NCBI RefSeq assembly: GCF_003018115.1
Contig: NZ_CP027457.1
Source: Escherichia coli
Lineage (GTDB): Bacteria > Pseudomonadota > Gammaproteobacteria > Enterobacterales > Enterobacteriaceae
DNA length: 64,000 bases
Direction: 5' to 3' (one strand)
Below the pieces are notes generated by a model. The model was not told where the DNA came from. It worked only from the letters and a program-made list of their open reading frames with translations, and did not search any database. A program made the translations under genes and the position numbers. Shown one piece after another: positions 37,506 to 38,599 of this stretch; the first letter of the stretch is position 1; every line of letters starts with the position of its first letter.

Positions 37506-38231
37506 ATGGATGTTGCCTGCTCTGTGGTCCTGATTCGCTATCCGATAGATATTTTTCTTGAAAAAGAAAAAGTTTCACTCGATGCCGGAAGTGTTATGCT
37601 TGTTGCCAGAAATATAAGAGGGCTTTTCTGTGCTTATGCCGACAGAGTGAAAATGGCAGATATAAGTAACAGCGTCGTCAATCAGTATCTGGAAAGGGTG
37701 TGTGAACTGACGGAGTATACACCGACAAAAATGCCTCTTTATTTGATGTCTGATATTTACAATACGGAACTGGCGGAGGCTTTAATAACCCAGCATAGTG
37801 AATCCAGTGATACTTTGAAGGATTTCTCTGTTATAACCGCATTTTCATGTATCTCCTTATTTGCAACAGACAGGCGTCTGCCATTATTTTTGTCCGGTGC
37901 TGTAAATAATATCAGCTGTAAAGTAAGGGCTATAATTCAGACTGACATATCGGCAGGCTGGATGCTAGGTGTGATTGCATTACAATTGCATATGAGCGAA
38001 AGCTTGTTGAAGCGAAAACTTAAGGATGAAGGTTATAGCTTTAGTCGGTTGTTGCTGGAGGAGCGAATGCGTGTTGCTGTTAATCTTGTATGTTTCCAGC
38101 GAGAGTCTGGACAAGTGATAGCGGAAAAATGTGGTTACTCAAGTAAGTCCTATTTAATTTCTGTATTTCACCAGTATTATGGTGCACCACCTGAGAGCTA
38201 TGCATATTTGCAGAAAGCAGACGTTATCTGA
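37506..38231 (+). CDS. AraC-family transcriptional regulator (prophage cargo)
   Basis: 241 aa; C-terminal double HTH (...LLKRKLKDEGYSFSRLLLEERMRVAVNLV...AEKCGYSSKSYLISVFHQYYG); low-GC segment. Confidence 0.8.
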   Translation: MDVACSVVLIRYPIDIFLEKEKVSLDAGSVMLVARNIRGLFCAYADRVKMADISNSVVNQYLERVCELTEYTPTKMPLYLMSDIYNTELAEALITQHSESSDTLKDFSVITAFSCISLFATDRRLPLFLSGAVNNISCKVRAIIQTDISAGWMLGVIALQLHMSESLLKRKLKDEGYSFSRLLLEERMRVAVNLVCFQRESGQVIAEKCGYSSKSYLISVFHQYYGAPPESYAYLQKADVI

Positions 38232-38320
38232 TGTTTTTTCATCAGGCATATATTGATTGACTGTATTAGATATAGTCTGAATGTGTTCAGCATAAAAAGT
38301 TATAATCATTTGGTGTTTGC

Positions 38321-38599
38321 GTGAATATTGATGAGAAAATCAGATGTAGCCAACTGTTACAGCGTATTGAAGCCGTCAATGTGGAACGAACAAAGGTCTT
38401 CAGTCGTCTGACAGTTTTATTTTGTACCCCTGATCGACGTTCAGGTCAGGAGATGGTTCTTCTGGATGTAGATGCACTTCGGAACGTCTGTGAGGAGTTC
38501 ACCGCGGCTAATTCGGAGTTACTGAGTCTTGTTCAGGAGTACAACAGAATTGCAGGTAGTAACGGTTTTGATGAAATCAAAATTATATCCCGTGGATAA
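38321..38599 (+). CDS. hypothetical protein downstream of the AraC-family gene
   Basis: 92-aa ORF, GTG start, AT-rich; no family recognised. Confidence 0.35.
   Translation: MNIDEKIRCSQLLQRIEAVNVERTKVFSRLTVLFCTPDRRSGQEMVLLDVDALRNVCEEFTAANSELLSLVQEYNRIAGSNGFDEIKIISRG

Follow-up and report, generated by a model that had tools for sequence, protein, structure and literature searches.

A prophage-borne AraC-family regulator of the Psr/PatE/GadW/YdeO group as putative acid-resistance cargo in the late region of an Escherichia coli lambdoid prophage

The prophage regulators PatE, PsrA, PsrB and AppY are established cases of phages that plug into the acid-resistance circuit of their host. PatE (Z0321) activates gadE, gadBC, and hdeAB, and PsrB binds and activates the promoters of hdeA (−132 to −45) and gadE and increases acid resistance (PMC10877973; PMC8565820). 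PsrA and PsrB, which are 90% identical, both repress type III secretion via GadE/YhiF (PMC10877973), and they are found only on prophages, alongside effector loci and Pch regulators (PMC10877973; PMC8565820). The Psr proteins recognize AT-rich DNA and derepress H-NS-repressed genes (PMC10877973). AppY, another prophage-borne member, activates gadE directly, and AppY, GadX, GadW, and YdeO all feed into gadE (PMC10057817). Collectively, the characterized members of the group (PatE, PsrA, PsrB, AppY, GadX, GadW, and YdeO) all converge on gadE/hdeA. Here, we analyzed a 64,000-nucleotide stretch of the Escherichia coli contig NZ_CP027457.1 (assembly GCF_003018115.1), hereafter called the window, and we describe in it a gene of a lambdoid prophage, araC, whose 241-residue product belongs to the same group and may likewise act on the glutamate-dependent acid-resistance (GAD) promoters of the host.

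Based on BLASTP comparisons, the araC protein shares 57% identity over 239 residues with the 237-residue regulators of prophage Sp11 of strain Sakai (ECs_2191) and of O103:H2 strain 12009, 36% over 238 residues with PatE (ECs_0287), 34% over 238 residues with GadW, 31% over 232 residues with YdeO, and 31% over 236 residues with AppY. The match to GadX (41%) covers 121 residues, that is, the DNA-binding domain only. Homology to the GadW/YdeO/AppY/PatE/Psr subgroup was therefore found at full length, with alignments of 232–239 residues. In these comparisons, PatE was equated with ECs_0287 by its location within Sp1, and the Psr-type comparator, ECs_2191 (237 residues) of Sakai Sp11, was chosen by genomic context and not by the sequences of Z1789/Z2104. 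The Psr-type proteins of Sakai Sp11, O103 12009, and DEC9B are 57–58% identical to the araC protein, and for the Psr type the identity is 72% over residues 135–241 and 47% over residues 1–134; for PatE, it is 46% in the DNA-binding domain. Moreover, in an alignment of 17 sequences, M1 and C5 are invariant and S6 is nearly invariant at the N-terminus, where an M-x-x-x-C-S-V motif is common to the araC protein, the Psr-type proteins, PatE, GadW, YdeO, and AppY. The recognition-helix segments are also nearly the same throughout the group, reading SESLLKRKLKDEG and SKSYLISVFHQYYG in the window protein versus SESLLKTKLKNEG and SRSYFISVFHRYYG in the Psr type.

The domain composition of the protein agrees with this placement. 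Pfam HTH_18 matches residues 158–232 (1.4e-11), and two HTH_AraC matches cover residues 144–183 and 205–226, so that the protein has the domain of about 100 residues with two helix-turn-helix (HTH) motifs that defines the AraC/XylS family. Residues 1–134 comprise a beta-sandwich and a helical region, and residues ~135–238 form the double-HTH DNA-binding domain. Similarly, the AlphaFold2 model, with a predicted local distance difference test score (pLDDT) of 88.6 and a predicted template modeling score (pTM) of 0.85, shows a beta-sandwich at the N-terminus, followed by a helical linker and a DNA-binding domain of seven helices. Sequence matches in the PDB are GadX, Rns, CsvR, and ToxT. In Foldseek comparisons, the GadX DNA-binding fragment 3MKL superimposes on the modeled DNA-binding domain with a template modeling (TM) score of 0.87 and a root-mean-square deviation of 1.4 Å at 41–43% identity, and over its full length the model is matched by Rns, CsvR, and ToxT (E values from 3e-10 to 2e-7, TM ~0.43–0.51, 15–19% identity). 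A sequence-only reading of the window had recognized a 241-residue AraC-type regulator with a C-terminal double HTH and had related it to the prophage PatE/Psr regulators. Both points stand, since the search against PatE/Psr and GadX/YdeO returned prophage AraC regulators that align over the full length (57% for the Psr type and 36% for PatE). What that reading said about PatE and Psr in acid resistance and type III secretion is likewise in line with the literature (PMC10877973).

Within the group, the araC protein represents a separate 241-residue clade and is not an orthologue of PatE, PsrA/PsrB, YdeO, or GadX. It matches phrog_1450 (2.3e-89), so the family is already present in PHROGs. A large protein database contains several sister clades, all of them from Escherichia/Shigella, namely the 241-residue clade of the araC protein itself (204 members), a 242-residue clade (62% identity), and a 240-residue clade (60%); several 237-residue clusters lie at 53–58% identity to the araC protein, one of them with 2285 members. 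The top NCBIfam model was YdeO (NF007407; 3.3e-34, residues 1–230), at 118.6 bits versus a cut-off of 348, and GadX (NF007432; 6e-26) scored 91.2 bits versus a cut-off of 500; both scores are below the cut-off, and HilD, HilC, and others rank next. An identity with PsrA or PsrB was rejected, as 57–58% to the Psr type, whose representative was identified by context, compares with 90% between PsrA and PsrB. Orthology with PatE (Z0321/ECs_0287) was rejected on the basis of 36% identity and a different position in the prophage. We also rejected the 237-residue open reading frame (ORF) after Q (33609–34322) as a second Psr protein, its product being hydrophobic, membrane-like, and without a match, and a role of araC in a defense system was rejected because there were no PADLOC matches.

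The relationship to the published psr genes was followed in O157:H7 genomes, each of which gives two DNA matches to the window gene, a number that fits psrA plus psrB. ECs_2191 lies between Q and the tRNA genes, and the Sp11 prophage also carries pchB and nleG effectors. No AraC gene was found in Sakai Sp6, Sp10, Sp12, or Sp14, or in CP-933N of EDL933 (OI-50 at potC, corrected assembly). In the potC prophage of EDL933 (NZ_CP008957.1, 1629367–1664999) and in Sakai Sp6, the interval from Q to the esterase gene has only TerB-like fragments and DUF3927. Reviews assign psrA (Z1789) to OI-50/CP-933N, an assignment that may go back to the earlier EDL933 sequence, which was misassembled.

The ratio of nonsynonymous to synonymous substitution rates (dN/dS) of araC against four relatives is 0.16–0.23, which indicates that the gene is maintained by selection. 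The 4-kb araC region has a practically identical counterpart in E. coli 07-4299 (NZ_CP027462.1), within a lambdoid prophage adjoining ompW, and the sole residue difference between the two araC proteins is at position 217, in the second HTH (codon near 38156). The window allele has Leu at this position, whereas Phe is present in each of the 16 remaining aligned family members and in nine other alleles of the 241-residue clade (07-4299 and eight database alleles). The substitution is conservative and is probably tolerated, because the equivalent position of MarA is also Leu.

Based on the annotation and the matches in Table 1, the window prophage spans from int, adjoining ompW, to the tail genes, and araC is located between Q and the lysis cassette. 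The sequence-only reading had described a regulator gene in the late region, in a low-GC island flanked by tandem modules and followed by a 92-residue ORF, and each of these features was recovered. The gene shares its strand with Q, which lies upstream of it; the esterase, holin, and lysozyme genes lie downstream, and Rz, terminase, head, and tail genes follow further on. The lambdoid-prophage location typical of PsrA/PsrB was thus found here as well, with a similar placement of Psr-type genes in the comparison loci L004–L007, L009, and L014; in general, Psr-type genes lie within the cargo interval from the Q, methylase, and tRNA genes to the esterase gene or just upstream of the tRNA genes. 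In phage Stx2_95, the order is Q, a 65-residue ORF, the methylase gene, three tRNA genes, stx2A, stx2B, one copy of the small RNA (sRNA) STnc100, and yjhS (esterase). This backbone order matches that of the window; therefore, the araC island occupies the Shiga toxin slot of Stx phages, whose cargo is exchangeable. No toxin gene is present in the window prophage.

The G+C content (GC) is 0.38–0.41 over positions 37400–38600 versus 0.50–0.59 in the methylase gene, the flanking repeats, and the esterase gene. The DNA upstream of araC aligns with that of three Psr-type genes from about 80 nt before the ATG, with TATACT in the window opposite TATAAT in the psr genes, and we list this hexamer as a candidate −10 element. 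Terminator-like sites number 17 in the region versus 7.1 ± 2.1 expected.

The flanking modules are five copies of STnc100 (RF02076) in 3 kb, which score 119–172 bits against a gathering score of 47. The downstream copies (38889–39084, 39148–39357, 39419–39617, and 39679–39868) are arranged head-to-tail with a period of ~260–270 nt (repeat families D1–D3). A terminator-like hairpin ends each copy, with the sites of copy 1 at 37099–37118 (+) and 37158–37137 (−). Elsewhere, we counted one copy in Stx2_95, L004, L013, and L014 and two in L021. For Pas sRNAs, which are related, a 2026 preprint reports that multiple copies are usually far apart and not in tandem, which makes the four-copy array unusual. 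Furthermore, the ~125 nt after copy 1 (37120–37245) match the leader of the esterase gene (39860–39990), and positions 37332–37429 are 79% identical to 35801–35898, the end of the intact methylase gene; the remnant covers its last ~55 codons. In L018–L022, an intact methylase gene is followed directly by araC. The esterase leader, the methylase remnant, and the intact methylase–araC order in relatives indicate that a block consisting of the methylase 3′ end, araC, orf92, and the STnc100 array was joined by recombination in a shared backbone to a block consisting of the methylase gene, the tRNA genes, the tolA-like gene, and STnc100; the methyltransferase remnant and the esterase leader are the scar between the two cargo blocks.

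The 92-residue ORF downstream of araC (orf92) is also a real gene, even though the Prokaryotic Genome Annotation Pipeline (PGAP) annotation omits it. It matches phrog_2873 (1e-46) and has no match in Pfam, NCBIfam, or PADLOC. The AlphaFold2 model contains helices at residues 3–35 and 50–81, and the best hit in a fold search against viral models was not significant (E = 0.45). An unannotated homologue with 60% amino acid identity was located at 5078–5356 of L013 (E. coli ST131, NZ_CP157672.1), in a prophage without araC, where it occupies the equivalent slot between the tRNA genes and the DUF3927 and iraM genes. Between this homologue and orf92, dN/dS is 0.28, and the differences by codon position are 23/23/42, an excess at the third position. 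Collectively, araC and orf92 are genuine genes and not chance ORFs. A further homologue (62%) directly follows araC of the 242-residue clade in L018–L020, and orf92 is absent from the Psr-type and 240-residue clades; it is thus a frequent neighbor of araC genes of this kind and not an obligate partner. The iraM product in the ST131 prophage is an anti-adaptor that stabilizes RpoS, and this prophage is another case of stress-regulatory cargo in the slot.

The low infectious dose of Shiga toxin-producing E. coli (STEC) rests on acid resistance, and strains of serotypes O113:H21 and O91:H21 cause severe disease without the enterocyte effacement locus (LEE). Among 5426 complete E. coli genomes, 78 contain araC together with orf92, in every case on the chromosome and with an identity of at least 99%. 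The named carrier serotypes include O178:H19, O91:H21, O113:H21, O22:H8, O104:H21, and O43, and the carriers come from human STEC surveillance isolates, cattle, beef, and other animals. We take the carriers of serotypes O113:H21, O91:H21, O178:H19, O22:H8, and O104:H21 to be LEE-negative STEC, going by serotype and not by eae. In the two carriers shown in a distant DNA search, the window gene is the sole Psr-group match (one place in each record). The 241-residue clade was not found among the sequenced phages of the phage collection, where a Psr-type gene of phiSTEC1575-Stx2k comes nearest (58%) and lambda-like phages contain PatE-like genes (36–37%). When the literature was searched for AraC regulators in LEE-negative STEC, no item specific to the window gene came up.

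Taking the family, the slot, and the hosts together, we consider it probable, with a good deal of doubt remaining, that araC is a cargo gene ("moron") expressed in the lysogen whose product activates the gadE/hdeA acid-resistance promoters of the host; it is the likeliest function among those weighed here. The gene would be transcribed in the lysogen from its own weak promoter, with TATACT as the −10 element, independently of phage late transcription. The terminators of STnc100 copy 1 would insulate it from unmodified transcription from the late promoter, in which case araC would rely on its own promoter in the lysogen. This promoter is probably under H-NS and stationary-phase control, as for the relatives. 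Upon induction, Q-modified polymerase would read through araC from the late promoter. The protein is predicted to bind AT-rich sites in promoters of the acid fitness island (gadE, hdeAB) and to activate the glutamate-dependent acid-resistance regulon, which would increase the acid survival of the STEC host. In hosts that lack LEE, the repression of type III secretion mediated by GadE would find no target. The further suggestion of the sequence-only reading that the regulator may act on type III secretion and LEE genes thus probably does not apply, given the presumably LEE-negative serotypes of the carriers and a window without Pch/PerC.

Several observations weigh against gadE/hdeAB activation. 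The equivalog cut-offs of YdeO and GadX are missed; the identity to the nearest characterized type is only 57%, and only 47% in the N-terminal domain, where signal sensing or oligomerization would reside; and the Psr-type comparator itself was identified by context only. The activation is deduced from the family. In addition, a generic promoter scan called no sigma-70-like site upstream of araC, and because TATACT was not called, its assignment as the −10 element stays tentative; the region has no more promoter-like sites than chance would give (10 versus 11.4 ± 4.2 expected). The window allele also carries a private F217L substitution at an otherwise invariant position. Part of this evidence would also suit a silent or decaying gene that is carried passively and has no effect on host or phage: no strong consensus promoter was found in the scan, H-NS probably silences the low-GC island, the surrounding DNA is a mosaic that includes a methylase pseudogene, and F217L adds to the list. 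However, the 241-codon frame is intact with a dN/dS of 0.16–0.23 against four relatives, the gene is intact and at least 99% identical in 78 genomes of several serotypes, and conservation extends to the −10-like element, which the psr genes share. We therefore rate passive carriage as the least probable of the explanations.

The immediate surroundings offer another set of targets, as many AraC regulators control adjacent genes. As a local regulator, the araC protein would act mainly on orf92, the STnc100 array, and the esterase gene rather than on chromosomal regulons, and this would suit a gene embedded amid five sRNA copies and an araC-then-orf92 order that is kept in two clades only 62–63% identical (the window and L018–L020). 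However, orf92 is found without any araC in the ST131 prophage (L013), the Psr-type and 240-residue clades have no orf92, and STnc100 and the esterase gene are found without araC in Stx2 phages. Moreover, the characterized relatives act at distant chromosomal promoters, and we regard a local role as unlikely. The structural comparison brings in a different group, since the best full-length matches, Rns, CsvR, and ToxT, hold bound fatty acids or inhibitors. The araC protein could accordingly be an anti-silencer of the Rns/ToxT/RegA type that counters H-NS at AT-rich acquired loci such as adhesins, toxins, or other islands of LEE-negative STEC and may sense a fatty-acid-like ligand. The N-terminal domain is the most diverged part (47%), as expected for a differing input signal, and the review cited above describes Psr proteins as binders of AT-rich DNA that relieve H-NS repression (PMC10877973). 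Nevertheless, identity to Rns/ToxT is low (16–19%, TM ~0.49), the protein is far closer to the GAD-regulator group, and an anti-silencing role seems to us improbable to a similar degree. A broader idea is that a "regulatory cargo cassette" of a Psr-like factor, the conserved helical orf92 product as its partner, and an expanded set of five STnc100/PasD copies replaces Shiga toxin in a Stx-phage-like backbone, rewires non-LEE stress and virulence regulons in LEE-negative STEC, and is exchanged by recombination at the sRNA repeats and the methylase gene; we hold this as speculation, ranking below the local and anti-silencing roles and above passive carriage. Activation of gadE/hdeA thus remains the reading that we prefer.

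The features of the cargo interval are collected in Table 1; several gene labels come from the PGAP annotation of a near-identical (99.9–100%) locus, L001.

Table 1. Features of the prophage cargo interval between Q and the esterase gene (positions in the window)
Feature	Position	Strand	Basis and remarks
Late antiterminator Q gene	32690..33355	+	PGAP, L001 16591–17256
Two small/hypothetical genes	between Q and the methyltransferase gene
Intact phage DNA methyltransferase gene (backbone)	34862..35902	+	PGAP, L001 18763–19803; NCBIfam methyltransferase matches
Two phage tRNA genes: CAU anticodon (ARAGORN Met, PGAP Ile) and tRNA-Arg(UCG)	35942..36103	+
Gene for 142-residue predicted lipoprotein, TolA C-terminal-domain-like	36382..36810	+	NCBIfam TolA 1.2e-29, residues 53–142; phrog_5772
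STnc100/PasD-family sRNA copy 1, terminator-like hairpin at end	36917..37129	+	Rfam RF02076, 172 bits
Methyltransferase 3′-end remnant with internal stop, left edge of araC module	37278..37442	+	PGAP pseudogene, L001 21179–21343
Candidate −10 hexamer TATACT of araC promoter	37467..37472	+	~35 nt before ATG, aligned with psr genes
araC, 241-residue AraC/XylS-family regulator of the Psr/PatE/GadW/YdeO group	37506..38231	+	ORF, ATG start
orf92, 92-residue predicted two-helix hairpin protein, separate cargo gene	38321..38599	+	GTG start
Four tandem STnc100/PasD-family copies between orf92 and esterase gene	38889..39868	+	Rfam RF02076, 119–142 bits each
nanS-p-type SASA carbohydrate esterase gene, right border of slot	40096..42060	+	PGAP

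Other features of the prophage were observed outside the regulator module. The TolA-like cargo lipoprotein, which PGAP labels "tolA", has a lipobox-like LTTGC and matches TolA C-terminal domain III over the final ~90 residues; it might be a decoy for colicins or for filamentous-phage g3p, or it might interfere with Tol-Pal. A second small lipoprotein gene (45039–45365, +), of 108 residues with the lipobox LVMGC and the PGAP label "TonB family protein", is located just past the lysis genes. With these two genes, the prophage therefore carries mimics of the C-terminal domains of TolA and TonB, which suggests that colicins or phages dependent on these energy transducers are excluded. In the early-to-middle region, Rfam detected IsrK (51 bits, 28495–28679, +) beside a C4 antisense RNA (69 bits, 29388–29562, +), and a sok antitoxin RNA adjoins hokD.

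The regulator belongs to a well-known class of prophage cargo, and the mechanism of the 241-residue clade is expected to extend known biology and not to open a new one. If the activation of the GAD system is true, araC would determine fitness in a strain-specific manner and would be a convenient marker of a prophage lineage in which a regulator stands where the relatives have Shiga toxin. The relevance of the locus lies mainly in the fitness of non-O157 STEC and in the contents of the toxin slot of Stx-phage-like backbones.

Compared with the known systems, the araC gene is closest to PsrA/PsrB (as ECs_2191). Both encode AraC/XylS proteins of similar length that can be aligned end to end, and both are cargo of lambdoid prophages, placed after Q and before the esterase and lysis genes; the Psr-type genes also share the upstream sequence with the −10-like hexamer. 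Unlike the Psr type, the window gene is preceded by a methylase remnant and not by a 65-residue ORF, and it is followed by orf92. In contrast to the PsrA/PsrB prophages, no Pch/PerC homologue was found in the 64-kb window (tblastn with PchB), and the annotation shows no effector genes in the covered portion of the prophage, whose distal end lies outside the window. The carriers of the window clade that are named by serotype are non-O157, unlike the PsrA/PsrB hosts. Similar to the window protein, PatE is a prophage-borne AraC-like regulator that can be aligned over the full length; in contrast, the prophage that carries its gene is degraded, and the gene lies at the right end, adjoining insertion sequence remnants. 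GadW, GadX, YdeO, and AppY have the same domain plan as the window protein, and all but GadX also have its N-terminal CSV motif. Unlike the chromosomal GAD regulators, the window gene is neither in the acid fitness island nor adjoining evgAS. Finally, the backbone of the Stx2a phage Stx2_95 is identical in order to that of the window from Q, the 65-residue ORF, the methylase gene, and the tRNA genes through the cargo to STnc100, the nanS-p esterase gene, and the lysis genes. The cargo itself differs, being stx2AB in Stx2 phages and a regulator with small genes and extra sRNA copies in the window.

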